Origin: Candidatus Woesearchaeota archaeon
GTDB taxonomy: Archaea; Nanobdellota; Nanobdellia; SCGC-AAA011-G17; UBA489
Assembly: GCA_964343875.1 (NCBI GenBank)
Contig: CAYFJW010000004.1
Span: forward strand, 18,395-82,394
DNA: 64,000 nucleotides
Direction: 5' to 3'
The notes beneath the pieces are model-generated. The model was given only the letters and a program-made list of their open reading frames with translations. It was not told the origin of the DNA and made no database searches. The stretch's first letter is position 1. Each line of letters starts with the position of its first letter. Below, piece after piece: positions 3,076 to 52,041 of this stretch. The position numbers and the translations under genes were made by a program.

Positions 3076-3204
3076 CTATTCAGGCACTTCCTGCCTAAAA
3101 CCGCACTTCTTGCAGTATCTGATGTGGAAGGAACCATCTGAGAATTTATGTTCTCCGTCGTGGAGTTTATCACCACATTCTGGACAATTTTCTTTGAATT
3201 TCAT
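3076..3204 (-). CDS. Small C4 zinc-ribbon protein (42 aa), not in the ORF track
   Basis: Minus-strand ORF MKFKENCPECGDKLHDGEHKFSDGSFHIRYCKKCGFRQEVPE with CPxCG...CKKCG. It overlaps the antisense + ORF 2912..3208, which looks spurious. Confidence 0.5.
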   Translation of the reverse strand: MKFKENCPECGDKLHDGEHKFSDGSFHIRYCKKCGFRQEVPE

Positions 3205-3241
3205 GTGAAAATTACTTGTTAGCAATGCTTAAAAGTTTTAG

Positions 3242-4180: not shown

Positions 4181-4244
4181 GTTTCTGCGTGGAAAGTTGA
4201 TTATTTAAAACTTCCTATTTGTAATTACCTCAGAATGACAACAG

Positions 4245-4898: not shown

Positions 4899-4902
4899 GC
4901 GA

Positions 4903-5110
4903 TTTAGACGTAGACGTTATTTATAAATGTAACTCATGTGTAGGAGACGTCCCTCTACATTCGTAGACGGGTGTAGACGTGTCGTAGACGGTTCGTAGAC
5001 GCGTTAATCGACGCTTTTTATAAAGAAAATGACCATTTACAGACGGGATCGACGCATTTTTGAAGGTTTTTCGAGAAATTCGAAAAGTGAGAAAAAGGTC
5101 ATCGACGCGT
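4903..5110. repeat. Iteron array: at least 6 direct copies of (C)GTAGACG followed by 3 copies of ATCGACGC, in the intergenic region between two paralogous wHTH genes
   Basis: tagacgtagacg (4905-4916); gtagacg at about 4963, 4973, 4984 and 4994; cctctac (inverted) at 4951; atcgacgc at about 5007, 5047 and 5101. Confidence 0.65.
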
Positions 5111-5515
5111 AAAAATTTTTGAAAAAAAGTTGAAAAAAGGCTAAATTCTTTCGGTTGAGGTTTTGTGAGGGTTAGAAGGGAGCCTGAGGAGGGATGAAAA
5201 AAGTAGAAAAAAGGTGCTGAAAGGTACGCTTATTTTGGAAAAGGGAGGAATAGGAAAGAGGGTGGTCAGGAATACCCTAGAATGGGAGAAGTGAGAAAGA
5301 AAAATAGGTATTGTTGGTGGACGGGGAGGAGCCGAGAAAGGTGCAGGATCTGCCCTATTTCCCATAAGTGAGAGCTAGTCATGAGAAGAGGGCTCCAAAA
5401 GTATCTATTTTAGGCGTTTTTGTGAGAAAATGATGCGTCGACGGAGGGTTTGAAGAGTGATTAACTCGGAAGAATACTGCTTTATTTCGAAAAAGTGAGA
5501 GATGAATTGAAAGAA

Positions 5516-6157
5516 CTACTCAAAAAGCGTAGTTTGATCAGTTGGATTCTCTCTGAGACGGATCAATTTATTGAGAAGGTTTAGGTCGTGAAAGTCTTCT
5601 TTTACCAAAAGTGAGGTTTTACGGTTGAAATGCCTCTCTTTCTTTAATGGGAGGCCTTTGGCCATTAGGCGGTTTGCAACGCCTCTAACGGTCGGTTCTG
5701 TTAGATTTAGGTGATTTGCAAGAAGTGAGTAGTTGACTTCTCCTTGCTTTTCTAGGTCTAAAATAGCCATGAACACCGAGAATTCCCTATCTGTGAGGGT
5801 TTTGAACTGTTTCTCAAAGTCCCTCTCTAGGGCCTGTAGGGTCTTTTTCGGAATGTTTTGTTGTCTTTCGTTGATGGTTGTTGACTGTTGATCGTTGACT
5901 GTTGATCGTTGATGATCGTTGATGACCCCTTTATTTCCAGTGGAGGCCTCTTTAAAGGAGGCTAAAATGGTCTTTATTTCTGTTATACCTTCTTTTAAAT
6001 CGTTTATTTTTAAATTAATCTCCTTAATCTCTGATTTATTGGATTTGGAGGTGCTTTCAAGGCTTCCTAGGCCTGTTTTTAAACTTGAAATGTCGTTTTT
6101 TACATTAGAGAAGGAATTCCTTATCTTTTCCTTAAAGGAGCTATCATCTTCTGCCAT
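5516..6157 (-). CDS. Coiled-coil plus winged-helix DNA-binding protein with an internal Q/N/D-rich tract; paralog of 4245..4898
   Basis: C-terminal REFSVFMAILDLEKQGEVNYSLLANHLNLTEPTVRGVANRLMAKG is a wHTH. The internal VINDHQRSTVNDQQSTTINERQQ tract is encoded by GTTGATCGTTGAC tandem repeats at 5870-5930. Confidence 0.55.
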   Translation of the reverse strand: MAEDDSSFKEKIRNSFSNVKNDISSLKTGLGSLESTSKSNKSEIKEINLKINDLKEGITEIKTILASFKEASTGNKGVINDHQRSTVNDQQSTTINERQQNIPKKTLQALERDFEKQFKTLTDREFSVFMAILDLEKQGEVNYSLLANHLNLTEPTVRGVANRLMAKGLPLKKERHFNRKTSLLVKEDFHDLNLLNKLIRLRENPTDQTTLFE

Positions 6158-6270
6158 TTTAGAGGGGATATTGGGGGCATTAGAATTATATAAGTCTTAC
6201 TTGTTGATCACTGTTGTTCATTGTTGATGATCGTTGATCATTGTTGACTAACCCCTTTATTTCCCATGGA
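5870..6270. repeat. GTTGAT(C/G)GTTGA(C/T) tandem repeats, with a degenerate second copy of the 5870-5945 segment at 6187-6270 in the intergenic space
   Basis: tgacccctttatttccagtgga (5925-5945) recurs as taacccctttatttcccatgga (6248-6270). The second copy encodes MGNKGVSQQ-stop, a truncated duplicate of the TGNKGVINDHQ segment of the 5516..6157 protein. Confidence 0.6.
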
Positions 6271-6784
6271 AATCCTTAGAAATCTTGTAGTAGAGCGCCA
6301 GGAAAGCCTCTTTTTGGGGTTTTAGGCCTACGGCGAGGAGTTTTTTAACTAGGTCTTGCCCAACGACCTTTTCTGTGCCTGTAGGAAGCTCGTAGCGCAC
6401 GATTTGGACAAGGGTTGGGCGGGATATGAATCCCTCATTTACCTGCAAACAGAGCTTCTGACCTGTTTCAATGCTTTTCACGACTAAATTGAATAGATTT
6501 ACCCTGATATCTCCACGGATGAATATATCTTTTTTGGCTTTAGCGAAGCCATTTGATAGGAGGAGCTCCTCTAGCATCGCTTTTATGGTTTGTTTGGCTG
6601 ACTGTTTGGGATTGTTTAGTGTTGATTGTTGATGATTGTTTAGTTCGATTACACGGCCTAGATAGGCTGAAACCTTTTGTTTAGGGTGCCTCTTGCTTCT
6701 TTTACGTCGTTTTGTAAGAACTAGGTATGCATATTTCCTTATACTTCCAGAAGTGTTTTTTCTTGTCTTAGTTCGTATATACAT
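6257..6784 (-). pseudogene. IS1634-family-like (IS4 superfamily) transposase N-terminal fragment, 175 aa, truncated at the duplication junction
   Basis: N-terminus MYIRTKTRKNTSGSIRKYAYLVLTKRRKRS...KQKVSAYLGRVIEL resembles the IS1634 transposase N-terminal pattern (MFxRxKxxKNGK.Y.YLVES.R...K..Q..LxxLGR). Full-length IS1634 transposases are about 450-550 aa, and there is no DDE domain here. Family resemblance is from memory. Confidence 0.4.
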
Positions 6785-6836
6785 ATGGTAGTGGGCACTA
6801 CAAAGAGATATATAAAATTAATGGAATTAAGAAGTG

Positions 6837-7289
6837 TTAGGATGCCTTTGGCTTGCCTTTTTCCGTAGCTTTTTCGGATTCCTTGGACTTTACTGCTATC
6901 CTTGGTAGGGATATGTGTGGTGGTAATCCTACTTGTTGTGATAATGAGAGTGCCATGACCCCGCATTTTGAGAAAATGTAATTTACTAATTGTCCAGAAA
7001 GTGAGGGATCAATCTTTGAGTGCTTGTCCCAATCCTCTAGGACCTTGTCTCTGGTTGCTTTGTCTGTTAGGAAGTGGATATGACCTATGATCTCTGTTTT
7101 GGCTACGTTTGGTAAGTAATCTACTTTGTATGAGAATTTGAATTTGAGTAGTGATTGGCCTGTTATTCCGTCAGGTGTTGGGTATTCTGCAATATCTAAG
7201 AACTTTATTCCGTTTTTTGCTTCTATCTTGCCTGTTATTTGGCCTGTCTTGTCTACGGATATTTTGTCCAGAGTAAAGTGAATTATCAT
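6837..7289 (-). CDS. Hypothetical protein
   Basis: 150-aa ORF with typical local codon usage; no recognisable motifs. Confidence 0.4.
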   Translation of the reverse strand: MIIHFTLDKISVDKTGQITGKIEAKNGIKFLDIAEYPTPDGITGQSLLKFKFSYKVDYLPNVAKTEIIGHIHFLTDKATRDKVLEDWDKHSKIDPSLSGQLVNYIFSKCGVMALSLSQQVGLPPHISLPRIAVKSKESEKATEKGKPKAS

Positions 7290-7324
7290 TGTGATGGGTT
7301 GATATTAGGGGATTATAAAACTTA

Positions 7325-9205
7325 CTATTTGGCTCTCTTAATCTTTCTTAGTAGGCTCTCGTGGCCCTTCCACTCGAGTGCCTCTTCGAGGATTGTTTCA
7401 AGTTTATCCGCTAGTATGATTTTTACCTTTCTTTTATTTTCTGGGCTTAGAAGGATATCATTGGCATTTGCTTTTGGTACAATTACTGTTTTGATTCCTG
7501 CCTGGATTGCAGCTTCAATCTTTTGTGTGACTCCTCCGACTGCTAGAACTTCACCTCTAACTGATAATGATCCTGTCATGGCTACATTTTGTTTTATTGG
7601 TACTTTCTTTAATGCTGAGATAATTGCTGTTGCTACTGCGATTGATGCTGAATCCCCTTCTACGCCACCGGACTCGGATGCAGTTTGTAGGAATTGGATA
7701 AAAATATCATATTTTTCTTTGATATCTTCTCCGAAGTATTTTAAGATGATTGCTGAAACATTTTGAACTGCTTCTTTTGCTATTTCTCCAAGCTTACCTG
7801 TTGCTATGAAGTCAGATCTCTTTCCACCAGGGGTAACTTCTGATTCAATTGGTAAAACTAAGCCGGAGAAGTATGAATCTGATCCCATTACTGCTAGTCC
7901 GTTTACTCGACCTACTCGAGATCCAGTTGTAACAATTACTTCGTATTTCTTTTTGTTTTCAATATACTTGTCTACTATTTGTTGTTCTAGTGTTCTTGCG
8001 AATTTCTTAGCGTTGATTACATGGATGGGTTGGACATATTTTGATTTTTGTTCAAGTGCTAAATCTCCTGCTGCCCTCACTAGGCCACCTAGCTCTCTTA
8101 ATCTAAGTGTGAGTTTCTTAGATGTTCCAGACCTTATTCTTGCTTCTTGGACTATTGTATCAACTGCTTCTTTTGTGAAGTGCGGGATTTTTTTATCTTT
8201 GTTAACTTCTTGTGCTACGAAGACTGCTAATTTGTATTGGTTTTCTGGAGTGTCATTCATTGAATGATTCATGTTTATTTCATAGCCATAACCTCTTATC
8301 CTGGATCTCAATGCCGGGTTCATTCTCTTTATTGTATCGGGGGTTCCAGCTGCTACTAAAATAAAGTCTGTTGGTGCTTCTTCTGAACGAACCATTGCAC
8401 CCGATGATCTTTCTGATTGCCCTGTTATTGGATATTTTCTTTCTTGCATGCATGTAAGTATCTCTTGTTGTGTTGCTGGGTCCATGTTGCCAACTTCATC
8501 TATGAATAATACTCCCTTGTTTGCTTTGTGTATCATCCCTGGAACTAGCCTTTCGTATGCTGGTGTTCCTAATCCTCCACTTTGTAATGGGTCGTGTAAT
8601 ACATCTCCTAAAAGTGCTCCTGCGTGACTTCCTGTTGCGTCAATGAAAGGTGCTTTTTCTTTTCTTGAATTGTCTATTAACATCTTAGGGACTTTTACTC
8701 CCTTTCTTGCTTTTTTATTTAAATTGAGGAATAAGATGAATATTGCTATGAACATCATGGATGAAATTAAGGATGCTGCCGCCATAATATCTCCATATTG
8801 TTTTCTAACCCACCATGGAGAGAATATTGATATTGCTATTAAGACATAGAAGAAGATCATTTGACCTTTGAATTGTTTTAAGGATTCTATTTTGAATTTG
8901 TTAACGTGTTTTGTTCCTTCTCCTCTTGGGAATGTTTTGATTATTGGATTGTGTTCATCTGATGGGTTGTCAAAGGATAAAACGTCATCTAATTCACTCT
9001 TGGGAATAAGTTCAGCCAGTGCTTGACCGGTCAAAGATTTACCTGTTCCAGGTTCTCCAATTAAAAGAACGTTTCTTCTTTGTTTTGCAGCTTTTCTTAT
9101 AATATCGACCGCTTCTTCTTGACCAACAATTTGGTTAACGGTAGATGAACTAGTCTCTATGTCTTTAGTTGTTTTAAACTTCTTAACAGATTTGGAACTA
9201 GCCAT
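7325..9205 (-). CDS. lonB: Archaeal membrane-bound ATP-dependent Lon protease (LonB)
   Basis: Walker [10 protein letters not shown]; a membrane-insertion segment with 2 TM helices inside the AAA+ module; C-terminal Lon proteolytic domain with catalytic Ser context ([19 protein letters not shown] ... [24 protein letters not shown]); 626 aa. Confidence 0.92.
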
Positions 9206-43318: not shown

Positions 43319-44335
43319 TTGGTTAAAATGATGGGCCTAAGTCTTGATGAAATTGTTTCTCAAATTAAAGAAAAGAAGGGCTTGTCTGAAGAAGAGATTA
43401 AATTAAAGATTTCTCAGAAAAGAGACAAGTTAAGTGGTTTAGTTAGCGAAGAAGGTGCCGCCCATATTATTGCTAATGAGCTTGGAATTGATTTAATGGA
43501 ATCTATTCGTAAACATGGTTTGAAGATAATTAAGTTAAAGCCTGGGATGAGAGTGGGTGTTACAGGGAAGGTTGTTAAGAATTATGAAGTTAGAACTTTC
43601 ACAAGAAATGAAAGAACTGGAAAGGTTGGAAGTTTTTTGATTGGTGATGACTCGGGGTTAATTAGGATTGTTTTATGGGACGATAATCATATTGCTAAAA
43701 TGGAAAATGGTGAGATAAAACCGGATGCAATTATTAAGATTGAAAATGGAACTGTTAAGGAGAATAATGGTTACAAGGAAATGCATCTTGGCAACTTTAG
43801 CCAAATAGAAGTTAATCCCGAAGGTGTTGGAGATATACAGGTTGTACAAAGAAACAATTCTGCTGTTGATATGGGTGAATCTGAAGTTAAGATATCTAAG
43901 TTAAGTGATGCTAATACTGGGGACAATGTTACGGTGTATGGAACGGTTGTTCAATTGTTTGAACCAAGGTCTTATGATGGTTGTTCTGAATGTGCTAAGA
44001 AGGTTGTTGATGGGAAGTGTGGTGCACATCCAACTGCTACAGTGAAAAAGATTCCAATATTGAATTTTTTCTTAGATGATGGCAATGCTGGAATGCGGGC
44101 TGTTGCATTTAGAGATGCTGCGGCGAAGATGTTAGATTTAGATGAGGCGGGTATGGATGGTTTGATTGGAAATGCAGCTGCTTTTGAAGACATCAAAGTT
44201 AAGACGCTTGGGGCACAGAAGGTTTTGAGCGGCAGGGTTACTTCTAATGAAATGTATGACCGGAATGAATTTATGGTTAGAAACGTTCATGAGATGGAAA
44301 CTAAGGATGTTTTGTCTAAGGTGTTAAATCAATAA
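43319..44335 (+). CDS. RPA-like ssDNA-binding protein: N-terminal helical domain, OB fold, C-terminal zinc ribbon
   Basis: OB-fold segment VGVTGKVVKNYEVRTFTRNERTGKVGSFLIGDDSGLIRIVLWDD followed by CSECAKKVVDGKCGAHP. Confidence 0.5.
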   Translation: MVKMMGLSLDEIVSQIKEKKGLSEEEIKLKISQKRDKLSGLVSEEGAAHIIANELGIDLMESIRKHGLKIIKLKPGMRVGVTGKVVKNYEVRTFTRNERTGKVGSFLIGDDSGLIRIVLWDDNHIAKMENGEIKPDAIIKIENGTVKENNGYKEMHLGNFSQIEVNPEGVGDIQVVQRNNSAVDMGESEVKISKLSDANTGDNVTVYGTVVQLFEPRSYDGCSECAKKVVDGKCGAHPTATVKKIPILNFFLDDGNAGMRAVAFRDAAAKMLDLDEAGMDGLIGNAAAFEDIKVKTLGAQKVLSGRVTSNEMYDRNEFMVRNVHEMETKDVLSKVLNQ

Positions 44336-44365
44336 TTTTTTAAGTTAGGAGGTGTTTTAGGGAGT

Positions 44366-44761
44366 ATGGTAAAGGGAAGGGGAAGGAAGACAAAGGTTAG
44401 CGTCAAGAAGGGTAATGATTTTTTATCGATATTTATTTTAGTTGTGTTGTTGTTTATCTTTGCTAGTTTGCGTTTTGGCGGTTTTTTGACTGGGAGTGCT
44501 GTTTCTGATGTTCAACTTAGTGTTTCTGATGTTCAACTTAGAAATGAGGTTTGGAAGGTTGATTCTTGCAGTGTTCAATCGGCAGAAGATATGGCGTTAG
44601 AGCTTAAGTGGAACTATGGTTGTAGCGTTAATTATTGTCGTGAAGCGGCTTATGGGTTGGATTTGCCATTGGGCAATATTGCCGATTTAAACTGTGTTAC
44701 TAGTGATCAGAGAGCTAAGTGGGAAGGCCACTGTAATGATATCTTTGAGGCTATATGCTGA
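44366..44761 (+). CDS. Small pilin-like, Cys-rich secreted protein
   Basis: VKKG|NDFLSIFILVVLLFIFASL N-terminus; contains an 18-bp perfect tandem repeat (gtttctgatgttcaactta x2 at about 44499-44540) encoding SVSDVQL x2. Confidence 0.4.
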   Translation: MVKGRGRKTKVSVKKGNDFLSIFILVVLLFIFASLRFGGFLTGSAVSDVQLSVSDVQLRNEVWKVDSCSVQSAEDMALELKWNYGCSVNYCREAAYGLDLPLGNIADLNCVTSDQRAKWEGHCNDIFEAIC

Positions 44762-44897
44762 GATTTAGGCATTTACTGCACTTACTTTCTAGCACATATT
44801 TCTTTAAAAAATCCAGAGATTTAACGGTGTTGGCTCGAAAGAGCATATAAAATTAAAACCTTATGGGGCTTTTGCTAAGCAAGAGTAGGAGAATAAA

Positions 44898-45191
44898 ATG
44901 AAAAAAAACGAAAAAAGTTCTATGGACGCTGTTCCAAATAGGCCATTCAAAGAATGGAAAGCAGGTAATCTTAAGGTTGCTCTGTGGAAAAATAAGAAAG
45001 ACATGGAAGACGGTTCTGAGATCGAATTCAAGACAGTTAGTTTGACTAGAAGTTATAGGAAGACTGGTGAAGATATATGGAGACATGATGTGATTAATTT
45101 ACGTAGGAATGATCTTCAGAAAGCAATATTAGTTTTGCAGAAAGCACAAGAAGACTTGTTGTTGTTTGATGCAGGAAAAGATGATGAGTGA
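44898..45191 (+). CDS. Hypothetical small protein co-oriented upstream of radA
   Basis: 97-aa ORF ending 8 nt before radA. Confidence 0.35.
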   Translation: MKKNEKSSMDAVPNRPFKEWKAGNLKVALWKNKKDMEDGSEIEFKTVSLTRSYRKTGEDIWRHDVINLRRNDLQKAILVLQKAQEDLLLFDAGKDDE

Positions 45192-45198
45192 GGTGTGA

Positions 45199-46158
45199 TT
45201 GATGAGCAAGAAAGAGATTAAAGTTACAGATTTGCCTGGAGTTGGTGCAGCTACTGCTGAGAAATTGGCGGAGGCTGGCTTTGACTCTTTAATGGCCTTG
45301 GCAATTGCTAGTCCTGCAAAAGTTGTTGAGATTGCTGGCGTTGGGGAGGCACCTGCTAGGAAGATCATTAATGCTGCTCGGAATTCGTTGGACATGGGCT
45401 TTGAGAGTGGATTAGACTTATTGGATAAAAGACAGAGTGTTATTAAGATAAGCACTGGGTCTAAGAATGTTGATGAAATGCTTGGCGGTGGGATCGAATC
45501 CGGCGCAATAACAGAATGTTATGGTGCTTATGGTTCAGGTAAGACAAGTATTGCGCATCAATTAGCCGTTAATGTTCAATTGCCTAAGGATCAAGGTGGT
45601 GCCGAAGGTGTTGCTGTTTGGATTGATACTGAAGGGACATTGAGACCTGAGTATTTGAAACCGATTGCATCTGCTAAAGGAATGGATGCTGATGAGGCTC
45701 TTAAAAATTTTAGAGGTGTAAGAGCATTTAATTCCGACCACCAAATGTTGTTAGCTGAAAAAGTTGAAGACCTGATTAAGAAAGATGGTTTGCCAATTAG
45801 GTTAATTATAGTTGATAGTTTAATGGGACATTTTAGAAGTGAGTTTGCTGGACGTGGTACTTTGGCGGATAGGCAGCAGAAGTTGAATAAACATTTGCAC
45901 GCACTTTTGAAGATTGCAACACAGCACAATATTGCAGTGTATATTACTAACCAAGTAATGGCTAAGCCGGATACTTTCTTTGGTGATCCAACTGAGGCTA
46001 TTGGTGGGCATGTTGTTGCACACACAAGTACTGTTAGAGTTTATCTTAGGAGAGGTAAGAAAGGAACTAGAGTTGCTAAGTTGGTTGATGCACCTGCATT
46101 ACCTGATGGTGAGGCTGCATTTATGGTGACTAATGAAGGGATAAAGGACGTTGCTTAA
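45199..46158 (+). CDS. radA: RadA recombinase
   Basis: N-terminal HhH (LPGVGAATAEKLAEAGF), Walker A GAYGSGKTS, and the rest of the RecA/Rad51 core; 319 aa. Confidence 0.92.
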   Translation: MMSKKEIKVTDLPGVGAATAEKLAEAGFDSLMALAIASPAKVVEIAGVGEAPARKIINAARNSLDMGFESGLDLLDKRQSVIKISTGSKNVDEMLGGGIESGAITECYGAYGSGKTSIAHQLAVNVQLPKDQGGAEGVAVWIDTEGTLRPEYLKPIASAKGMDADEALKNFRGVRAFNSDHQMLLAEKVEDLIKKDGLPIRLIIVDSLMGHFRSEFAGRGTLADRQQKLNKHLHALLKIATQHNIAVYITNQVMAKPDTFFGDPTEAIGGHVVAHTSTVRVYLRRGKKGTRVAKLVDAPALPDGEAAFMVTNEGIKDVA

Positions 46159-46184
46159 CGTCCTCCTCCCGAAAAGCTTATATC

Positions 46185-46910
46185 TTGCGTTTTTTTGTTG
46201 AAATTATGACCCTAAAGAAGGTGGATTTCAATGAAGAATGGTATAATTGCCTAACTTCGAAGTCCGATGAGAAGGACGTGTTGATTAGCAAGTTTAAGGA
46301 TATTGTTGGGGGAGGAAAGCATAAATCTTGTCTTGAGATAGGTCTTGGGACAACAGCTCATTTTTCAGATAGCATTTCTAATCTCTTTGAGGATTACGCT
46401 ATAGTGGAGAAGGAAGATGTAAAAGTTGATCTCCCAGATAATGTTAGATTGATTAATTCTGATTGGGAAGAACTAGAACTTGACAGAAAATATGATGTTA
46501 TTCTTGCGTCGCATGTGATATACTACTTTAAGGACAAAGAGAAGGCAATACAGAAGATGTTTGATTCTTTGAATCCAGAAGGAATAGTTGTGTTTGTGGT
46601 TAACGGGAAAGATGCAGATTATGGTGTCTTAAAACTTAAATTTTCTGAATTGATTAATGAAGAATATCATTTCACCTATGACGTTCTTAGGGAAATCTTG
46701 GAAGGAAAGAAAATTGAGGAATTTTCTGTGCCTTCTACTGTTGGCTTTAAGAATGCAGAAGATTTATTCAACACTCTAAAGATTTCTTTTGATATGTATC
46801 CTGAAGAATATTTGTCGCTGAAGAAAGAAATGTGTTCTTTTTTTAAAGATAATTTTAAAAATAAGGTTATCTTTAATCAAAAAATTATTGTTTGTAAGAA
46901 GGATCTTTAG
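46185..46910 (+). CDS. Class I SAM-dependent methyltransferase-like protein
   Basis: Motif I-like SCLEIGLGTTAHF and post-I acidic residue; DVILASHVIYYF. Confidence 0.55.
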   Translation: MRFFVEIMTLKKVDFNEEWYNCLTSKSDEKDVLISKFKDIVGGGKHKSCLEIGLGTTAHFSDSISNLFEDYAIVEKEDVKVDLPDNVRLINSDWEELELDRKYDVILASHVIYYFKDKEKAIQKMFDSLNPEGIVVFVVNGKDADYGVLKLKFSELINEEYHFTYDVLREILEGKKIEEFSVPSTVGFKNAEDLFNTLKISFDMYPEEYLSLKKEMCSFFKDNFKNKVIFNQKIIVCKKDL

Positions 46911-46992
46911 GAAGAACTAGTCGAATTATTGGCCCAACTTTAGGAAATGCCTTTGCCAGAATATCTTTATTGACTTAGTTAAACAAGATAAG

Positions 46993-47064
46993 TAGGCGAG
47001 CGGAGAATTGAACTCCGGTCTTAGTCTCCGCAGAACCACGTACTATCCACTATACTACTCGCCT
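46993..47064 (-). tRNA. tRNA-Arg (anticodon GCG)
   Basis: Minus-strand sequence AGGCGAG-TA-GTAT-AGTGGATA-GTAC-G-TGGTT-CTGCGGA-GACTA-AGAC-CGGAG-TTCAATT-CTCCG-CTCGCCT-A folds into a cloverleaf. It has a 7-bp all-Watson-Crick acceptor stem, a D-loop with GG, U33, anticodon GCG, purine 37, a 5-bp T stem with TTCAATT loop, and a 4-nt variable loop. CCA is not encoded. Confidence 0.75.
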
Positions 47065-48151
47065 TTTTCATTTTTCTAATTTTAGCTGTATTCTTGGACC
47101 CAATCTCTTTGATCCATTTTTTTAACATTGTTGGACCATTCAACGTAATGGTGTACTTATAAACTGTGGGGATGTATCCAAGCTTTCTGAACATGCTGTG
47201 TAGCTGATCTATTAATCTTTTAGATTTTATTGTTATTGAAATTACTGGGTACCTCCTGTCCCTAAGGTAGATGCATCCATCTGTATCAAAGAGACCTCTG
47301 ATGAAGTGGAAGTAAATCTTTCTATTCCTTGTATCTAGTACTTTCTTAGGAATTTTTAGCTTTCCAACTTTTTTTCCTGTGGGAAGTTCTAGTTCCTTGT
47401 TCTTGAATTCACAAAGTGCCTTTGAATATATCTCAAATCCACATACACTATTGAGATGCATTAATCTTAAGTCTAAATTGTATAATTTTTTGTATAATCT
47501 TAGCAGGTGGCTTGTGAAATATTCTTTTTCCGTTTTGTTACATTTAACAGAAAAATAATTTTTTGTAGATAAGCATCCATCTCCCATGTGCACTCCTATT
47601 TCCTCGGCTAGTTCTTTTGACATAACCTCTGGAAGTGTCAGCTTTTTACATTTATCATGTTTACTAAAGCTTATTTTCTCTGAATTGAAGAAAACTTTCT
47701 CATTTGTGAAATAATTTTTGTTAGACTTTTCTAACTCTTTGGACTCTAACTCCCTCTTTTTTATTTTTCCTTGGACGGTCATTTTTATTAGGGCCTTTCC
47801 ATGCCTTTTCCATATCGTGTTTTTAACACATTTTGCTTTTTGCCTCATCAAATTTGAGTAGGCTTCTTCTCCAAGCTTTTTCCTTTGACATTGAGCAGAT
47901 CTTTTTCCACCAATCTTTCCTCCTTCTATGGCTCCCCAATTATTATCTTTTTTATCTAATATCTCACTTGGCTTTATTTCTGAAAGAATCAAGAAATCTG
48001 GGATATATCGATTTTCGTATCTATATCCCTTGAGTGTTTTGAAGTTAATTTTTAGCTTTTCTGCTAATTCTTTTAATGTTTTTGCGTTGTTTTTCTTCTT
48101 TAAAATACGGAAGAGCTTTTCTTTAGACTGTAGAGATATTAGAACTCTCAT
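47021..48151 (-). CDS. Free-standing double-motif LAGLIDADG homing-endonuclease-like protein
   Basis: Two LAGLIDADG motifs about 100 aa apart (IGVHMGDGCLS and IRGLFDTDGCIYL); basic N-terminal region; 376 aa. The last 14 codons overlap the 5' half of the tRNA-Arg on the same strand. Confidence 0.75.
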   Translation of the reverse strand: MRVLISLQSKEKLFRILKKKNNAKTLKELAEKLKINFKTLKGYRYENRYIPDFLILSEIKPSEILDKKDNNWGAIEGGKIGGKRSAQCQRKKLGEEAYSNLMRQKAKCVKNTIWKRHGKALIKMTVQGKIKKRELESKELEKSNKNYFTNEKVFFNSEKISFSKHDKCKKLTLPEVMSKELAEEIGVHMGDGCLSTKNYFSVKCNKTEKEYFTSHLLRLYKKLYNLDLRLMHLNSVCGFEIYSKALCEFKNKELELPTGKKVGKLKIPKKVLDTRNRKIYFHFIRGLFDTDGCIYLRDRRYPVISITIKSKRLIDQLHSMFRKLGYIPTVYKYTITLNGPTMLKKWIKEIGSKNTAKIRKMKKASSIVDSTWFCGD

Positions 48152-48246
48152 TTTGGTTCTCGAATGAATGTTTATTTGTTTAAATATTTTATCCAGACTA
48201 AACCGTAAGTATTTTCATTTTATACTGATTTAAACTTTGCATAAAA

Positions 48247-48936
48247 CTAATTCTCTCTTCGTGCAAGGTCAGTGTTTGGTAAGTTCTTCTCTTTTTGAAT
48301 AATAAAAATGTGGCCAGGATGAGACTCTCCATTTATTGTTGTAAAATCTGGATTTTCATAGTGCAAAATGGAAGAATTGTGACTTTCTATAAGGTCTTCC
48401 ATTTCTTTTTTGCTAAAATTGTGTGTTCTAAACCTTTCCGTTCCATCTTTGTTTTTAACAATTACTGTGCCATACTCCTTGGTTGTTTTTTTGTGTTCCA
48501 TATATCTAGCAGAATTATCCGTTTGTCCAAATTCTGATATGTGTAAAATTCCATTTGCTTTAAGAACCCTAAAAATTTCATCCATAACCCTCCTTCTTTC
48601 GTCAGGAGCCATACAAGCTAAAACAGCCTGCGAAATAATAACATCAAAAAAACTATCTTCAAAATTTAAGTTCTTTGCATTTTGAACCGAAAAATTAACA
48701 TCCTTGAGTTCTTTATTTTTTTGAGCCTCTTTAATTGCACTCTTATTTATGTCAATGCCATAAGCTTTACAATTTTTTTCTTTTAAAATATTGCATAATC
48801 TCCCATATCCACAACCCAAATCTAAAACAACCTTATCTGCTTCAATGTGATCAAATAGTTTCTTTGAAAAACTAGAAGTGGCTGGCACGTTCTTACCTTC
48901 AATTTTTTCCCATTTTTCGAAACTCACCTCATTCAC
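48247..48936 (-). CDS. Class I SAM-dependent methyltransferase
   Basis: Motif I VLDLGCGYGRL, acidic motif II YGIDIN, motif IV FDVIISQAVL. Confidence 0.7.
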   Translation of the reverse strand: MNEVSFEKWEKIEGKNVPATSSFSKKLFDHIEADKVVLDLGCGYGRLCNILKEKNCKAYGIDINKSAIKEAQKNKELKDVNFSVQNAKNLNFEDSFFDVIISQAVLACMAPDERRRVMDEIFRVLKANGILHISEFGQTDNSARYMEHKKTTKEYGTVIVKNKDGTERFRTHNFSKKEMEDLIESHNSSILHYENPDFTTINGESHPGHIFIIQKEKNLPNTDLARREN

Positions 48937-49034
48937 CCTGTATCCAATATTTTTATAATTTGCTTTTTGTGCAAAAAAGCCTTTTCTGGAGGTTTAGTAA
49001 GTTTTATAAATCCATTTCAGGGTTTTTTGGTAAG

Positions 49035-49211
49035 ATGGACAAGAAATCAAATAAGTGCGCTAGTACAGGCGTAGACATTACTAATGACAAGGGAAGCGTC
49101 ATTTTTGATTGCCCTGGATGTGGTAAACAGAAGGTAATAAGGTCTTATAATGCTAGACAGACATCTGCTCAGTATGTTTGTGGAGAATGCGGATTCATAG
49201 GTCCCAATTAG
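49035..49211 (+). CDS. Small C4 zinc-ribbon protein (58 aa), starting at MDKKSNKC
   Basis: CPGCGKQ ... CGECGF. Confidence 0.45.
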   Translation: MDKKSNKCASTGVDITNDKGSVIFDCPGCGKQKVIRSYNARQTSAQYVCGECGFIGPN

Positions 49212-49219
49212 GTATTAAA

Positions 49220-49498
49220 ATGGCTAAGGTAATTGTTACGTTTAAAGTTATGCCTGAAAGTTTAGAGGTTGATCTAAACGAGGTTAAAGAACTTCTTAAG
49301 AAGCAAATTACTGATTTTGATGGGATTATTAATGGTGAGATGACTGAAGAGCCGGTTGCTTTTGGTTTGAAAGCTGTTATGGTTAAGTTTGCTTATGATG
49401 AGTCTAAGGGAACAACTGATGATCTGGAAGATAAGTTGACTAGCGAAGAGATAGTTCAGAGTGTTGAAGTTGTAAGTGTTGGAAGGGCAATGGGATAA
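49220..49498 (+). CDS. ef1b: Translation elongation factor aEF-1 beta
   Basis: MAKVIVTFKVMPESLEVDLNEVKELLKKQI ... VAFGLKAV matches the archaeal EF-1beta pattern; about 92 aa. Confidence 0.8.
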   Translation: MAKVIVTFKVMPESLEVDLNEVKELLKKQITDFDGIINGEMTEEPVAFGLKAVMVKFAYDESKGTTDDLEDKLTSEEIVQSVEVVSVGRAMG

Positions 49499-49527
49499 TT
49501 TTTATATCTTGATCGTATTGTTTTAAC

Positions 49528-50049
49528 ATGGCAGAAGAGAAGAAGTGTATTTTTTGTGGAATTGCTGATGGGTCTATGCAGAGTGCAAAGATCTATGAAG
49601 ATGATTTAGTTGTTTGTGTTTTAGATATTTTTCCTGCTTCAAAAGGTCATGTTTTAGTTATTCCTAAGAAGCATATTGCTATTAGTGCGCAGTTGGACGA
49701 TAATTTGTCTGCGCATTTGTTTAATGTTGGGAACAAAATGTCTGCATTATTGTTTGAAGCGATGAAGGCACAAGGGACTAATTTGTTGATTGCAAATGGT
49801 GATGTTGCTGGGCAGAAGGTTGATCATTTGGTTTTACACGTTATTCCCAGGTATCCAGAAGATGGTGTTAATATTTCTTGGAATGCCGAACAGATTAAAG
49901 AAGATGAATTGAAGGATACTTTTGAGAAGATTACTTCTATGACTCAAGGTAAACGAGAAGTAAGGGAAGAACCAAAAGAGGAACCTAAGAAAGAGGTTGT
50001 TGAAGAGATAGAAGAAGAGACTTTTGATGAGGAAGAGAGGATTCCTTAG
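49528..50049 (+). CDS. HIT-family (histidine triad) hydrolase with acidic C-terminal tail
   Basis: HVLVIPKKHI and histidine triad DHLVLHVIPR. Confidence 0.8.
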   Translation: MAEEKKCIFCGIADGSMQSAKIYEDDLVVCVLDIFPASKGHVLVIPKKHIAISAQLDDNLSAHLFNVGNKMSALLFEAMKAQGTNLLIANGDVAGQKVDHLVLHVIPRYPEDGVNISWNAEQIKEDELKDTFEKITSMTQGKREVREEPKEEPKKEVVEEIEEETFDEEERIP

Positions 50050-50924
50050 ATAACTGGAAGGAATAGGGCCCCCCCAACGATTAATGTTACTATCGTGCCT
50101 ATTAGGAAAGGGGGTACGAAGGGAATGCCTTCCTTGACTAGGACTTGTTTTATGTTTGCTTTTTTTAGTAGCGATATTTCTTTTTTGTTTATCCCGTAGG
50201 GGTTGACTTTGTAGATTAGTTTTTTATTTTTGTAAACATCTTTTTGTACCCAGTCTCCCACTGTTAGTTTGTTGACTGGAGTTTCTTTGTACATGCATGC
50301 CAGTTCTGTGCTCTTTAGTGCGGTTATCAAGTAAGGAGCTATTAATAATATTAATGAAAGCGTCCCTATTAATAATCCTGCACTTGCAGGGAATATTGTG
50401 AAGGATGAAATGAACAATAGTGTCGCAATAATTAACATGCCTATTTTAATTCCAATTGTTTTATATGAGTTGTTTAGTTTTTTGAATTCTTTTTTGAATG
50501 CAACCTTGTTTTTTAGTGAAAGGTGTAGGGCAAAGAATATTCCATATATTGCCCCAATTATTAAGATGTTCAATAGTAAAATTGCTGGAAATGGAATTAT
50601 TGAAGTTTCTGCTAAGTAAGCTGGTCTTATTGCGAATGCAGAACCCAGTGCAGTTATTAGTTTTGTATCCCCTCCGCCCCACTGTCTAGTGTAGTACATT
50701 ATGTTTCCAAATATGAAGAATATTGCAAAGAAGATTAATGTTTGGACTATATAGGTTGAATCTTTTAATAGGATGGACTCTACCCCTCTGGTTGCGATCA
50801 CGAAGAAGAGTAAGCTATAGCTTAGCCAATCTGGGATTTCTCTTGTTCTTAAGTCTGAGAATGAGGCGATAGTTAGGATAACTAATGTGGCTGCTGTGAT
50901 CAGGATATCGAATAATACGATCAT
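50046..50924 (-). CDS. A24-family prepilin / preflagellin peptidase (PibD/FlaK/EppA-like)
   Basis: Catalytic Asp boxes SFSDLRTREIPDWL and RQWGGGDTKLITALG; polytopic; 292 aa. Confidence 0.8.
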   Translation of the reverse strand: MIVLFDILITAATLVILTIASFSDLRTREIPDWLSYSLLFFVIATRGVESILLKDSTYIVQTLIFFAIFFIFGNIMYYTRQWGGGDTKLITALGSAFAIRPAYLAETSIIPFPAILLLNILIIGAIYGIFFALHLSLKNKVAFKKEFKKLNNSYKTIGIKIGMLIIATLLFISSFTIFPASAGLLIGTLSLILLIAPYLITALKSTELACMYKETPVNKLTVGDWVQKDVYKNKKLIYKVNPYGINKKEISLLKKANIKQVLVKEGIPFVPPFLIGTIVTLIVGGALFLPVI

Positions 50925-50976
50925 TGCTTTATAAGCATCCGAATAGGTTTATAAACTTTTTAGATTTTTTTAGAGA

Positions 50977-52041
50977 GTGGTTTCTATCGTTGGGGCTGGA
51001 CCAGTGGGGAATTATTTAGCTAGTAAGCTTTCTTCTAATGGGTTGAAGGTTGATATTTATGAGGAGCATGCTAGGGTAGGAGTTCCTATTGCTTGTACGG
51101 GAATATTGACTTCTTACTTGTCTGATTTTGTAAAGGTTAGTGAAGATTACTTAGTGAATAAGATCGATAGAACTGATGTTTATTCTCCGGACGGTAATTC
51201 GGTGAGTATCAAATTGAAGAGGAATTTCATAGTTGATAGAACTTTGTTTGATGCTCATTTTGCCGAAGTTGCTGAGTCTAATGGCGCTAAATTGCATACA
51301 GGGTGTAAATTAGTTTCTCTGAATAAAAATGTAATGAAATTTAAGAATGGTCAGAGTGTTAAGAGCGATGTTATTGTTGGTGCGGATGGTCCGAATAGTG
51401 TTGTTGCGAGAAGTAGTGGTATCTTTGGTGATAGGAAATTCGTTGTTGGGCATCAGGCCAGAGTTAAGTTGAAAGAGAAAGTTGATCCTAACGTGGTTGA
51501 ATTCTTTTTAGACGAAGGGAATTATATTGGGTGGCTAGTCCCTGAAGATGATAAGGTTGTTAGGCTGGGTGTTGCTTCGCATGTAGGGACAGATAATTAT
51601 TTTAATAATCTTTTGAAGAAAAGGGACGGAAAAGTTTTGGGTTGGCAGAGCGGAGTTATTCCAGTTTATAGTCCAAAATTAAAAATTGAGAATGATAATG
51701 TATTTTTGGTTGGTGATGCTGCGACACAAGTTAAGGCTACGACTTATGGAGGAATTATTCCTGGGATGAATGCTGCAAATGTTTTGAGTGATGTCATTTT
51801 AGATGGCGGAAGTTATACCAAGGGTGTTAAGAAGACAATTGGTAGGTCTTTGAAGACACATCTACTTATTAGGAAATTAATGAATAAGTTTTCTAAGAGA
51901 GATTTTAATGAATTGGTTAAAATGTGTAATAAAAAATCTGTTAAGGATTTAATTTATGAACATGATCGAGAGTATCCTAAGAAGTTGTTACTTTCTATGT
52001 TGTTAAAAGAACCAAGATTTTTGAAATTTATTCGCTTGTAG
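50977..52041 (+). CDS. Geranylgeranyl reductase family FAD-dependent oxidoreductase
   Basis: N-terminal FAD-binding motif IVGAGPVGNYLA ... DIYEEH and GADGPNSVV. Confidence 0.7.
   Translation: MVSIVGAGPVGNYLASKLSSNGLKVDIYEEHARVGVPIACTGILTSYLSDFVKVSEDYLVNKIDRTDVYSPDGNSVSIKLKRNFIVDRTLFDAHFAEVAESNGAKLHTGCKLVSLNKNVMKFKNGQSVKSDVIVGADGPNSVVARSSGIFGDRKFVVGHQARVKLKEKVDPNVVEFFLDEGNYIGWLVPEDDKVVRLGVASHVGTDNYFNNLLKKRDGKVLGWQSGVIPVYSPKLKIENDNVFLVGDAATQVKATTYGGIIPGMNAANVLSDVILDGGSYTKGVKKTIGRSLKTHLLIRKLMNKFSKRDFNELVKMCNKKSVKDLIYEHDREYPKKLLLSMLLKEPRFLKFIRL

Follow-up and report, generated by a model that had tools for sequence, protein, structure and literature searches.

A LAGLIDADG endonuclease gene fused to tRNA-Arg(GCG) in an archaeal genome, a candidate selfish cassette nested within a second tRNA-Arg gene in its DPANN relatives

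Self-splicing introns and inteins are considered the shelter that allows homing endonuclease genes to survive inside essential genes. Free-standing homing endonuclease genes of organelles enter the ends of protein genes and bring with them a duplicate of the displaced segment, as at fungal mitochondrial atp6 and rps3. In WhiA of Gram-positive bacteria, the catalytic acidic residues of the LAGLIDADG scaffold have been lost and a helix-turn-helix (HTH) module lies at the C-terminus. Archaeal rRNA introns harbour LAGLIDADG genes (PMC6125680). In phage T4, the free-standing GIY-YIG homing endonuclease SegB is encoded within a tRNA gene cluster, its recognition site takes in a conserved tRNA motif (the T-psi-C stem-loop), and its homing spreads the endonuclease gene and neighbouring tRNA genes together (PMC2330249).

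Here we analyse the window, a 64-kb stretch of archaeal DNA in which a LAGLIDADG ORF runs into a tRNA-Arg(GCG) gene, together with related loci of DPANN archaea (designated by L numbers). The encoded protein resembles I-Tsp061I and I-DmoI in its monomeric double-motif fold (Foldseek TM-score ~0.7 to this type, normalised to the target), in the acidic residue that ends each motif and in its archaeal host. Those two enzymes are encoded inside bulge-helix-bulge introns of rRNA genes and are spliced out at the RNA level, whereas the window gene appears to have its own promoter, encodes an extra N-terminal domain of 170 residues and is fused to a complete tRNA. By sequence profile, the closest proteins are the LAGLIDADG domains of inteins (the VMA inteins of Thermococcus litoralis and Pyrococcus, and PI-PfuI; E = 4e-11), and partial NCBIfam matches of the ORF are also to intein-encoded LAGLIDADG. 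An intein was nevertheless rejected, as the ORF has no Intein_splicing or Hint match and no host extein, and starts at its own ATG behind a likely promoter of its own. The gene also lies outside any recognisable self-splicing intron, in line with the preliminary description: Rfam returned no intron family, group I and group II included, at E <= 1 in 44000-51000 and none at gathering score over the whole window, and no RNA family besides the tRNA was found in either.

The remaining systems resemble the window family in part. SegB is likewise a free-standing endonuclease gene among tRNA genes, but it belongs to another nuclease family, has a phage host, and shows neither an ORF/tRNA overlap nor a bracketing disrupted tRNA gene. 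In the organellar atp6 and rps3 cases, a carried replacement rather than splicing makes the insertion harmless and a remnant of the original stays; their hosts are protein-coding and the fusions are in frame, whereas in the window family a whole tRNA would have been replaced and both old ends flank the unit. Elements that enter tRNA genes through a tyrosine integrase share the tRNA gene target, the carried tRNA sequence that keeps function and the partial copies at the borders. Their borders, however, are direct repeats of one tRNA end, while the window-family unit has no integrase and consists of a complete second gene flanked by the 5' and 3' halves of one gene. WhiA shares the combination of a LAGLIDADG scaffold with an HTH module, but the window family has kept both Asp residues without exception and has its HTH-like module at the N-terminus.

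The ORF, its protein and the tRNA at its end

The ORF has a double-motif LAGLIDADG core at residues ~170-360, preceded at residues ~1-145 by an N-terminal HTH-like module and a three-helix region, and matches Pfam LAGLIDADG_3 with E = 2.8e-11. The catalytic residues D191 and D291 are exactly 100 residues apart, where the preliminary description had put the two motifs about 100 apart. In an alignment of 42 homologues spanning 33-61% identity, D191, G192, D291 and G292 are invariant, as are H188 and G190 in the first motif and G286, D289 and T290 in the second. An AlphaFold2 model (pLDDT 92) has the expected alpha-beta-beta-alpha-beta-beta-alpha order of elements, and its LAGLIDADG helices stop at residues 191 and 291, both with Asp-Gly. 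Foldseek matched the model to the endonuclease domain of the TliVMA intein, I-Tsp061I, PI-PfuI and I-DmoI, with probability 1.00 for the last three; among proteins of solved structure, its nearest relatives are homing endonucleases of archaeal inteins and introns. The protein has the double-domain core and the acidic residue at the end of each motif helix that characterise LAGLIDADG homing endonucleases, and judged from its sequence it is an active-looking enzyme. The active site is also intact in the orthologues, where the preliminary description had allowed for a conserved host gene with a diverged, inactive fold. Weak HTH matches occur at the N-terminus of several family members, and weak matches to Pfam LAGLIDADG_WhiA in three of the 42. 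The ORF is under purifying selection (dN/dS 0.14-0.25 in pairs with dS <1), and intact full-length copies are present across several DPANN orders.

Table 1 Features of the locus in the window and the evidence noted for them.
Feature	Position	Strand	Evidence	Remarks
RadA gene	45199-46158			Near the ORF/tRNA unit
SAM methyltransferase gene	46185-46910	+		Neighbour on the tRNA side
Spacer 3' of the tRNA	46911-46991	-		Site of piece C in relatives
Inner tRNA-Arg(GCG)	46992-47064	-	ARAGORN	Complete, without intron, without encoded CCA
ORF/tRNA overlap	47021-47064	-	ORF and tRNA calls	44 nt, same strand
LAGLIDADG endonuclease ORF	47021-48151	-		ATG start, 376 aa, TAA stop at 47021-47023
Second motif, IRGLFDTDGCI	47270-47302	-		Residues 284-294, catalytic D291
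First motif, GVHMGDGCLS	47567-47596	-		Residues 186-195, catalytic D191
TATA2, TATA-like box ATATTTAAAC	48178-48187	-		27 nt before the ATG
Decayed piece A, GGTTTAGTCTGGATAAAA	48187-48204	-	Local alignment	D-arm-like remnant of the outer tRNA-Arg 5' part
P1, TATA-like box AAGTTTAAAT	48228-48237	-		Now upstream of the ORF
SAM methyltransferase gene	48247-48936	-		Neighbour upstream of the ORF

The tRNA, which is the sole tRNA within the window, was accepted both by ARAGORN and by the Rfam tRNA model (RF00005), the latter placing it at 46993-47064 with 57.9 bits (gathering score 29, E = 7e-11) in a full-length match to model positions 1-71. It folds into a normal cloverleaf with D-loop AGTGGATAG and a first pair A1-U72. 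These calls bear out the tRNA, its boundaries and the 44-nt same-strand overlap of the preliminary description, and both flanking genes are indeed assigned as SAM methyltransferases. Positions 1-44 of the tRNA encode the last 13 sense codons and the stop of the ORF, the stop being positions 42-44. Every Arg(GCG)-family relative examined likewise has its ORF stop within the tRNA, at a depth of 16-97 nt, and all three reading frames are represented; because the overlap is kept in the family while its frame and length vary, the ORF tail is not selected as protein.

The ORF stays open until it is inside the tRNA, which leaves no room for a terminator between the two, and every ORF transcript must enter the tRNA. 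The co-transcribed unit suggested by the preliminary description is in this sense structurally forced for the ORF transcript, and tRNA processing may, as also suggested there, define the mRNA 3' end. TATA2 probably serves as promoter for an ORF mRNA that is leaderless or nearly so. The equivalent box in relatives sits 22-23 nt ahead of the start codon, a spacing that matches the 21-24 nt between TATA box and tRNA position +1 at unlinked tRNAs of these genomes. A further TATA-like element, TTCAAATA, lies 24-27 nt 5' of the inner tRNA in 13 of 20 family units, where it is built from conserved Gly-Ser-Asn-Asn codons of the ORF and probably also drives the tRNA directly in most relatives. Its counterpart in the window is only TCCAAGAA, with five of eight positions matching, and expression of the window tRNA probably relies on transcripts that start at the ORF promoter, read through into it and are then processed at the 5' end. 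In the Ile and Arg-TCG subfamilies, a canonical tRNA promoter overlaps the end of the ORF. The idea that the ORF simply occupies a tRNA 5' leader removed by RNase P was rejected as insufficient, because relatives have, past the inner tRNA, the corresponding 3' half of a second one (see below); it is also weakened by the canonical tRNA promoters of these two subfamilies.

The linkage of ORF and tRNA extends across the family. Among related DPANN loci in GTDB, at least 52 of 80 have a same-strand tRNA at or inside the 3' end of the ORF, counted when the tRNA starts between 106 nt before and 120 nt after the ORF stop; 40 of the 52 are strict ARAGORN calls, Rfam adds two further loci, and the chance expectation is ~0.005 per locus, or ~0.4 over the 80. 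The identity of the linked tRNA follows the ORF subfamily (Arg-GCG, His, Arg-CCT, Arg-TCG, Ile and others), and several paralogous tRNA-linked subfamilies can share one contig. GTDB species representatives contain at least 396 loci, and the relatives are all metagenome assemblies. A virus-borne element was rejected, as IMG/VR contains no member of this ORF family, only distant LAGLIDADG relatives with 21-44% identity over the core. No earlier description of tRNA-linked LAGLIDADG genes in archaea was found in the searchable literature, and the candidate cassettes form a widespread and apparently undescribed group in DPANN archaea.

Remnants of a second tRNA-Arg gene around the unit

In the Arg(GCG) family, the unit of promoter, ORF and complete inner tRNA is bracketed by both ends of a second, outer tRNA-Arg gene. 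Its 5' flank consists of the promoter, acceptor 5' strand and D-arm of the outer tRNA, and its 3' flank of the T-arm and acceptor 3' strand; the anticodon arm is absent from the outer gene. Reading downstream, the order is promoter, GCCCCyA-TA-GTTy-AAyGGATAG-AAA (piece A), and a TATA box that precedes the start codon by 22-23 nt; then, 10 to 25 nt past the inner tRNA, CGAGGTTCAAWTCCTCG-TGGGGGC-A (piece C), followed by a T-run. The description of the gene as free-standing in the preliminary description therefore stands insofar as neither intron nor intein encloses it, but not in full, as in relatives the ORF and its tRNA lie inside a disrupted second tRNA-Arg gene.

The outer pieces match intact, ORF-free tRNA-Arg(GCG) genes such as those at L136 and L145 (GCCCCTG...CAGGGGC; the L136-type gene reads GCCCCTGTAGTATAGTGGATAGTACGCAACCCTGCGGAGGTTGTAACCCGGATTCAAATTCCGGCAGGGGCA). 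The acceptor strands of the outer tRNA (GCCCCyR / yRGGGGC) are not complementary to those of the inner tRNA (AGGCGAG / CTCGCCT), and they match each other within a locus at 6.8 of 7 pairs as against 5.95 of 7 across loci, counted by script on strands delimited by hand. The same-locus total was reached in none of 20000 permutations, and double changes occur at pairs 6-67 and 7-66. The limits of pieces A and C were set partly by eye, with an ambiguous register in L004; an automated search for them was noisy in register and MAFFT misaligned the short strands. Piece C has a truncated T-arm in L143, L150 and L152, and is absent from L149, L135, L007, L001 and the window. The same left junction, with a tRNA D-arm directly followed by a TATA box, recurs in the Arg-CCT, Arg-TCG and His subfamilies, and piece C is present in L040 and L043. 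The Ile-linked subfamily has no remnants, so that the tRNA-linked subfamilies may not all share a single mechanism.

The conservation of piece A far exceeds that of neutral DNA, and function rather than repeated refreshment by homing is a possible cause. Between L003 and L143, where dS is 0.8, piece A and TATA2 together differ at one of 37 nt, and this single difference has a compensating change in piece C.

In the window itself, a decayed trace of the outer 5' half spans 48187-48237. For the D-arm-like remnant within it, the score of local alignment to the joined piece A and TATA2 was equalled by 0 (L151) and 4 (L152) of 2000 shuffles. P1 is presumed to be the original promoter of the disrupted outer tRNA gene; the homologous box in L143 is the orthologue of the promoter that directly drives the tRNA at the ORF-free locus L142. 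The spacer at 46911-46991 has no recognisable piece C and no convincing complement, and a nucleotide alignment of the window unit with L001, which has other neighbours, found no homology in the flanks that could be used. The window copy is best read as an old resident, its 5' remnant decayed and its 3' remnant gone while the ORF stays intact.

The relatives display several presence/absence states at a fixed site. L142, which is syntenic (same RadA neighbour) and has an identical tRNA with an orthologous promoter 22 nt upstream, lacks both ORF and remnants. The pairs L132/L138 and L133/L141 retain only the last 66 nt of the ORF, together with the tRNA and piece C, and L135, L139 and L143 are full copies with the same tRNA. 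The tRNA at L142 is of the inner rather than the outer type, which speaks against a simple never-invaded site and calls for an ORF-less repair event or a selected deletion. Synteny of ORF, tRNA and RadA recurs among the relatives. The ORF tree disagrees with that of the neighbouring RadA: the window and L001 are 80% identical in RadA and 50% in the ORF, while the window and L151 are 60.5% identical in RadA and 59% in the ORF. These incongruent identities, like the fresh-looking remnants that match each other, would be indirect evidence of transfer by homing.

Readings of the nested arrangement

We consider it probable, judging from sequence comparisons, that ORF and tRNA form a selfish homing-endonuclease cassette, one that interrupts a tRNA gene of the host and supplies another in its stead. 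Of the three readings in the preliminary description, the evidence favours that of an element that targeted the tRNA locus, with the difference that the inner tRNA-Arg(GCG) is better seen as the cargo of the element than as its target. In the cassette, a LAGLIDADG gene under a promoter of its own would run at the 3' end into a complete tRNA-Arg(GCG) carried as cargo. The cassette would have taken the place of the anticodon arm in a resident tRNA-Arg(GCG) gene, with the D-arm on one side and the T-arm on the other, leaving the resident promoter and 5' part upstream and the 3' part and terminator downstream. The supplied working copy of the tRNA would make the insertion harmless without RNA or protein splicing. 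In cassette-free genomes, the endonuclease would cut intact tRNA-Arg genes of the resident type, and the break would be repaired from the cassette-bearing copy, with the tRNA remnants and flanking DNA as homology arms, such that the ORF and cargo tRNA are copied into the recipient.

Several observations count against this scheme, besides the inner-type tRNA of L142, the strong conservation of piece A and the remnant-free Ile-linked subfamily described above. (i) The inner tRNA has the anticodon loop of the presumed target, which goes against the cassette model and leaves the immunity of the cassette allele without an explanation. (ii) The 25-nt remnants, also counting against the model, would be short homology arms between diverged genomes. 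(iii) Intact ORFs beside decayed remnants, as in the window and L001, are not predicted by a classical cycle of invasion, decay and loss and fit a benefit at the level of the host.

A domesticated endonuclease, also among the earlier proposals, is an unlikely alternative. The gene would then be a vertically inherited host gene with a cellular role tied to the tRNA-Arg locus, possibly the upkeep or regulation of tRNA genes through site-specific DNA binding or cleavage, or possibly defence against elements that integrate at tRNA-Arg, and the nested tRNA halves would be the fossil of an ancient insertion. Vertical inheritance would account for full-length ORFs over several DPANN orders, the low dN/dS and the recurrent synteny with RadA, yet the ORF and RadA trees conflict, and the gene is dispensable, given one syntenic ORF-free locus and two lineages in which the ORF has been deleted; these states weaken the domestication proposal. 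A precedent for a host role is WhiA, a LAGLIDADG transcription factor with an HTH that is among the Foldseek matches, and the N-terminal HTH-like domain of the present family is conserved; unlike WhiA, however, the family has kept its catalytic Asp residues invariant. The intact ORF of the window and L001, despite decayed remnants, would also fit domestication, against which stand the fresh, mutually matching remnants at many loci and the paralogous subfamilies, each tied to its own tRNA, which look like target-specialised selfish lineages.

The outer halves could also have a function of their own. We think it improbable that they are a working, tRNA-like acceptor/T-arm module in which the anticodon arm has been replaced by a 1.2-kb endonuclease mRNA plus cargo tRNA; transcription would run from the resident tRNA promoter to the resident terminator, and the halves would then pair. 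More doubtful still is a functional outer clamp, in which the 5' and 3' halves of the transcript pair into an acceptor/T-arm 'top half', mRNA and inner tRNA stand in for the anticodon arm, and tRNA-processing enzymes trim or protect the ends or the helix directs processing or circularisation. What is missing from the outer tRNA is approximately the anticodon stem-loop, P1 keeps the canonical distance to the base at which piece A starts, and piece C is followed by a T-run, so that a promoter and a terminator bracket the whole unit. The clamp would further explain why cognate acceptor strands remain complementary through compensatory double changes and why the one change in piece A plus TATA2 between L003 and L143 is compensated in piece C, but homing would also produce such complementarity and apparent covariation, provided that every event renews the remnants from an intact tRNA of the recipient. 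The truncated or missing piece C at the loci named above also argues against it. A clamp is compatible with a mobile cassette and inapplicable to the decayed copy in the window.

That the unit is a spliced element (a bulge-helix-bulge intron, a group I intron or a split tRNA, with outer and inner pieces joined) is very improbable and largely refuted by the sequence. tRNA introns occur in DPANN archaea, Nanoarchaeum has split tRNAs, and the inner tRNAs of L149-L152 contain short canonical introns. Archaeal rRNA introns, moreover, bear LAGLIDADG genes (PMC6125680). Against these parallels, the inner tRNA is complete and self-consistent, outer and inner acceptor strands are not complementary, an anticodon arm is missing from the outer gene, Rfam gives no group I or group II intron match, and the ORF has its own correctly spaced candidate promoter. 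An archaeal bulge-helix-bulge tRNA intron was rejected on the missing anticodon arm and the unpaired acceptors, and a split tRNA of the Nanoarchaeum type on the AT-rich TATA box directly after piece A, the absence of a complementary extension and, again, the missing anticodon arm.

Meaning for homing endonucleases and DPANN tRNA genes

One consequence is practical and concerns annotation: gene callers run these ORFs through tRNA genes, so that many proteins in the databases end in residues translated from a tRNA. If the cassette model is true, it would account for many DPANN proteins labelled 'LAGLIDADG family homing endonuclease' or 'hypothetical protein', and the family would be a natural set of endonucleases with tRNA-gene specificities. 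Should the outer halves be a working module, the unit would parallel in nature the engineered 'tRNA scaffold', a selfish gene borrowing the processing and stability of a tRNA. On this broader and improbable reading, the hundreds of tRNA-linked LAGLIDADG genes in DPANN archaea would amount to a third general way in which homing endonuclease genes settle in essential genes without harm, the other two being introns and inteins. The cassette model itself would describe a new safe-harbour strategy for selfish genes, namely to break a tRNA gene and bring a spare. The tRNA genes of the tiny DPANN genomes would then be battlegrounds of mobile elements, which would bear on the frequent interruption or splitting of archaeal tRNA genes.

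An endonuclease gene ending inside tRNA-Arg(GCG)

The LAGLIDADG ORF of the window runs into a tRNA-Arg(GCG) gene on the same strand: its TAA stop codon (47021–47023) occupies tRNA positions 42–44, so that 44 nt are common to both. ARAGORN and Rfam agree in accepting the tRNA, the latter through a full-length match at 46993–47064 (57.9 bits against a gathering score of 29). It is the single ARAGORN tRNA call in the whole 64-kb window, in which no other Rfam family reached its gathering score. SAM methyltransferase genes flank the ORF on either side, with RadA slightly farther out. The preliminary description had recognized the ORF, its two motifs, the tRNA, the overlap and the methyltransferase neighbours, all details that the ORF call, ARAGORN, Rfam and Pfam bear out. 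It had also placed the ORF outside any intron or intein, and indeed Pfam and NCBIfam find no splicing domain in the product and Rfam finds no intron family in the window. The genome is AT-rich, and the gene content of the window includes RadA, EF-1-beta, a ribosomal protein of the aS21 family (Pfam PF07754) and a type IV prepilin-like peptidase.

Features of the window and of selected relative loci (L-numbers)
Sequence	Feature	Position	Strand	Detail
Window	LAGLIDADG ORF	47021–48151	minus	376 aa, ATG start
Window	First LAGLIDADG motif	aa 186–195 of ORF	minus	
Window	Second LAGLIDADG motif	aa 284–294 of ORF	minus	
Window	tRNA-Arg(GCG)	46992–47064	minus	ARAGORN
Window	P1	48228–48237	minus	AAGTTTAAAT
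Window	D-arm-like remnant	48187–48204	minus	GGTTTAGTCTGGATAAAA
Window	TATA2	48178–48187	minus	ATATTTAAAC
Window	RadA	45199–46158		no insert
L149	Inner tRNA-Arg(GCG)	2591–2676		with intron
L150	Inner tRNA-Arg(GCG)	1299–1384		with intron
L151	Inner tRNA-Arg(GCG)	~2600–2686		with intron
L152	Inner tRNA-Arg(GCG)	2591–2674		with intron
L011	tRNA-Arg(GCG)-like sequence	~7150–7220		...GGCTTGCGGAGCC...CCGGGTTCAAATCCCGGCGGGAGCG
L005	Split RadA	7566–8963		insert ~0.4 kb
L007	Split RadA	5480–7945		insert ~1.5 kb
L142	Split RadA	1800–4229		insert ~1.5 kb
L143	Split RadA	4808–7261		insert ~1.5 kb
L152	Split RadA	3328–4119		

Pfam assigns the ORF to LAGLIDADG_3, and its NCBIfam matches are confined to the endonuclease portions of intein-containing proteins. 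An AlphaFold2 model (pLDDT 92; input, a 42-sequence alignment) has three parts: an N-terminal helix-turn-helix-like module (strand 2–5; helices 7–20, 26–33 and 37–45), a middle region of three long helices (residues 72–143), and a canonical double LAGLIDADG core whose signature helices terminate at residues 191 and 291. Helix-turn-helix matches to the N-terminal region are weak and sub-threshold in several family members. Foldseek neighbours of the core are the Thermococcus litoralis VMA intein endonuclease domain, intron-encoded I-Tsp061I, PI-PfuI and I-DmoI, and a sequence-profile search retrieves the same intein endonuclease domains. D191/G192 and D291/G292 are invariant in the alignment, the homologues being 33–61% identical to the window protein. 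Its fold and active-site residues make the enzyme a member of the LAGLIDADG family, and the protein looks like an active endonuclease. The ORF is under purifying selection (dN/dS 0.14–0.25 in unsaturated pairs).

Linkage to tRNA genes across relatives

In the protein database, 219 homologues were found; most are of 370–390 aa, and their sources are Woesearchaeota, Pacearchaeota, Aenigmatarchaeota and Nanoarchaeota. Many end in ...ASSxVDxxxPCG, which is tRNA-Arg(GCG) translated over its 5' half and anticodon loop. Other models (P0008, P0020, P0038 and P0062 among them) read across the entire tRNA gene to end in translated T-arms (GSNP, GSIPRSLV, GSTPSTPIS); these deposited C-termini are annotation artefacts.

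A pattern scan of GTDB species representatives gave at least 599 matched stretches, at least 396 of which encode a relative. Among the best 80 of these, 52 have a same-strand tRNA whose first base lies between 106 nt upstream and 120 nt downstream of the ORF stop (40 strict ARAGORN calls, 12 in intron mode only), and in 32 of the 80 the stop codon lies inside the tRNA; background tRNA density predicts ~0.005 such linkages per locus. Rfam supplies additional linked loci (L010 and L028). Within the same 80, the identity of the linked tRNA tracks the ORF subfamily: Arg(GCG) for full-length relatives, His(GTG) for the next closest group, and Arg(CCT), Arg(TCG), Ile(GAT), Thr(TGT), Gly(TCC) and others for more distant groups. 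Some contigs carry two tRNA-linked LAGLIDADG genes. Overlap is found in every case in the Arg(GCG) family, and since its length (16–97 nt) and frame vary, the tRNA-encoded tail is a by-product and not a selected peptide.

At six His-linked loci (L015, L017, L018, L024, L026 and L027) an ORF with an N-terminal KGMRDF/RGMRD-type motif starts directly 3' of tRNA-His; judged by eye it looks like histidyl-tRNA synthetase, which would give the order LAGLIDADG gene, tRNA-His, hisS. L023 (JAFCCB010000014.1), labelled Candidatus Dojkabacteria, a CPR bacterium, has tRNA-His downstream of an archaeal-type LAGLIDADG gene, as in DPANN loci, which suggests a mis-binned contig or cross-domain transfer. In L149–L152, the closest ORF relatives of the window, the inner tRNA (the complete one overlapped by the ORF) has an intron of ~12–13 nt directly 3' of the anticodon, ttcttaagtagta between CTGCGG and AGG, unlike the intron-free tRNA of the window. 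ARAGORN misses or miscalls three of these four. In L011, neither ARAGORN nor the Rfam gathering search reports the tRNA-Arg(GCG)-like stretch situated between the end of the ORF and tRNA-Leu(CAG). The numbers of tRNA genes counted for these genomes are too low.

The gene order ORF–tRNA–RadA is recurrent, as expected for an element always at one fixed site. Of the main loci compared, L001 has the RadA nearest to the window's, 80% identical at an ORF identity of 50%; for L151 the values are 60.5% and 59%. This incongruence points to horizontal ORF exchange or strongly uneven rates. In several relatives a large insert divides the adjacent RadA, which tblastn recovers as two segments (see table). 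The product called in this region of L152 has Intein_splicing and LAGLIDADG_3 domains, placing an intein-borne LAGLIDADG endonuclease 1–2 kb or less from the tRNA-linked one.

Halves of a second tRNA gene and three allelic states

The unit is nested between two halves of an outer tRNA-Arg gene. The order upstream of the start codon is fixed across family members: P1 (a canonical archaeal TATA box), piece A and TATA2, a second TATA-like box. Piece A (GCCCCyA-TA-GTTy-AAyGGATAG-AAA), ~24 nt after P1, comprises an acceptor 5' strand and D-arm. TATA2 directly abuts it, 22–23 nt from the start codon, which is the TATA-to-first-base spacing seen at ordinary tRNA genes of the same genomes. Piece C (CGAGGTTCAAWTCCTCG-TGGGGGC-A, then a T-run), 10–25 nt downstream of the inner tRNA, comprises the T-arm, acceptor 3' strand, discriminator base and terminator. 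Unlinked tRNA genes of L011–L079 have a strong TTTAWATA box ending 21–24 nt before position +1, so that transcription would begin at, or only a few bases from, the mature 5' end; such DPANN spacing is reminiscent of Nanoarchaeum equitans, with its leaderless tRNAs and no RNase P.

Within a locus, piece A and piece C have complementary acceptor strands: GCCCCTA/TAGGGGC in L003, GCCCCCA/TGGGGGC in L143 and GCCCCTG/CAGGGGC in L150 and L152, with G-U intermediates at other loci. Cognate pieces pair at 6.8 of 7 positions versus 5.95 of 7 across loci, the observed total being reached in 0 of 20,000 permutations. They are unable to pair with the inner acceptor strands (AGGCGAG/CTCGCCT), and no sequence like an anticodon arm separates piece A from TATA2, or the inner tRNA from piece C. 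The outer pieces closely resemble intact ORF-free tRNA-Arg(GCG) genes such as L136 and L145 (GCCCCTGTAGTATAGTGGATAG...CAGGGGCA). The left junction, a D-arm directly followed by a TATA box, recurs in the Arg(CCT), Arg(TCG) and His subfamilies, with matching 3' pieces in L040 and L043; the Ile-linked subfamily has promoters only and no remnants. Beyond its Arg(CCT)-type 3' remnant, L040 has a second remnant of the Arg(GCG) outer type (ATCTCGTGGGGGCA), ~80–100 nt after tRNA-Arg(CCT) (7053), which suggests leftovers of more than one cassette side by side.

In the window, likeness to piece A plus TATA2 is at a level reached by 0 of 2000 shuffles for L151 and 4 of 2000 for L152. In piece A the acceptor portion is decayed, and 46911–46991 contains nothing recognizable as piece C, so the window holds an old copy; the flanks of L001 are similarly decayed.

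A metagenome scan with the tRNA-Arg(GCG) pattern gave 14 loci, several with identical inner tRNAs and different upstream sequence, in three allelic states. The full ORF is present in L135, L139 and L143. In L132/L138 and L133/L141 its last 66 nt are kept with the tRNA and piece C, a deletion of ~1.1 kb having taken P1, piece A and codons 1 to ~344 with it. L142 is without the ORF, piece A and piece C. L142 and L143 are syntenic, with RadA downstream in both; their promoter-containing upstream flanks are 77.5% identical over 227 aligned columns, the L142 tRNA promoter is orthologous to L143 P1, which there precedes piece A, and L143 has ~1158 bp extra. The preliminary description had proposed looking for an empty site in relatives; L142 is an ORF-free syntenic locus, but has an inner-type, not outer-type, tRNA, and so is not a simple naive site.

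L132 and L133 differ at 1 of the 45 nt adjoining the tRNA and at 5 of the 25 nt before that. The conserved stretch includes TTCAAATA, the Ser-Asn-Asn codons of a conserved Gly-Ser-Asn-Asn motif; 13 of 20 family units have this element 24–27 nt upstream of the tRNA. It is probably the inner tRNA promoter, embedded within the ORF; the window counterpart, TCCAAGAA, is a poor match.

A cassette that may replace the gene it disrupts

On balance we favour the view that the unit is a homing-endonuclease cassette that interrupts a resident tRNA-Arg(GCG) gene and brings along a functional replacement tRNA, with substitution in place of splicing. Cleavage at a target site in the resident gene would let the cassette break that gene while supplying a working copy of the same tRNA; the two ends would stay as flanks and act, with any genomic homology, as homology arms in homing. 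Each homing event would reset the remnants from an intact recipient gene, which would explain why they look fresh and mutually matched at many loci. In the window, the ORF transcript would necessarily reach into the tRNA; should processing release the tRNA 5' end from it, the leftover mRNA would be stop-less, and full-length protein would come from unprocessed transcripts only.

Several observations are difficult for the cassette and keep two rivals alive: (i) L142 has the inner-type rather than the outer-type tRNA. (ii) The inner tRNA would have to escape cleavage. (iii) Piece A is conserved far above neutral: L003 and L143, at dS 0.8, differ in it at one of 37 nt, a change itself compensated in piece C. 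(iv) The window ORF is intact despite decayed remnants. A domesticated gene with a host role is nonetheless unlikely, since alleles without the ORF show its dispensability and there are many paralogues, each specific to some tRNA. That the outer pieces form a functional tRNA-like clamp around the transcript is more doubtful still, because piece C is shortened or absent at many loci and the idea is inapplicable to the window copy. Intron, intein and split-tRNA readings fail their defining tests (no splicing domain, no Rfam intron, unpaired outer and inner strands, a missing anticodon arm).

Such a cassette has functional analogues. Organellar endonuclease genes carry a duplicate of the gene end displaced by their insertion, and integrase elements restore the tRNA genes they target. 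Likewise, phage T4 SegB, a GIY-YIG endonuclease within a tRNA gene cluster, spreads neighbouring tRNA genes, and its site contains the T-psi-C motif (PMC2330249). The genomic lifestyle differs from that of intron- and intein-borne archaeal LAGLIDADG members; in one survey, those in archaeal group I introns occurred in rRNA genes only (PMC6125680). Searches of the openly available literature gave no description of tRNA-linked or tRNA-nested archaeal LAGLIDADG genes; the arrangement is apparently undescribed, the enzyme family itself being already known. With ORF and tRNA so tightly fused, complete deletion of the endonuclease gene would usually take the tRNA promoter too, a constraint illustrated by the deletion derivatives that retain exactly the stretch with the probable promoter.
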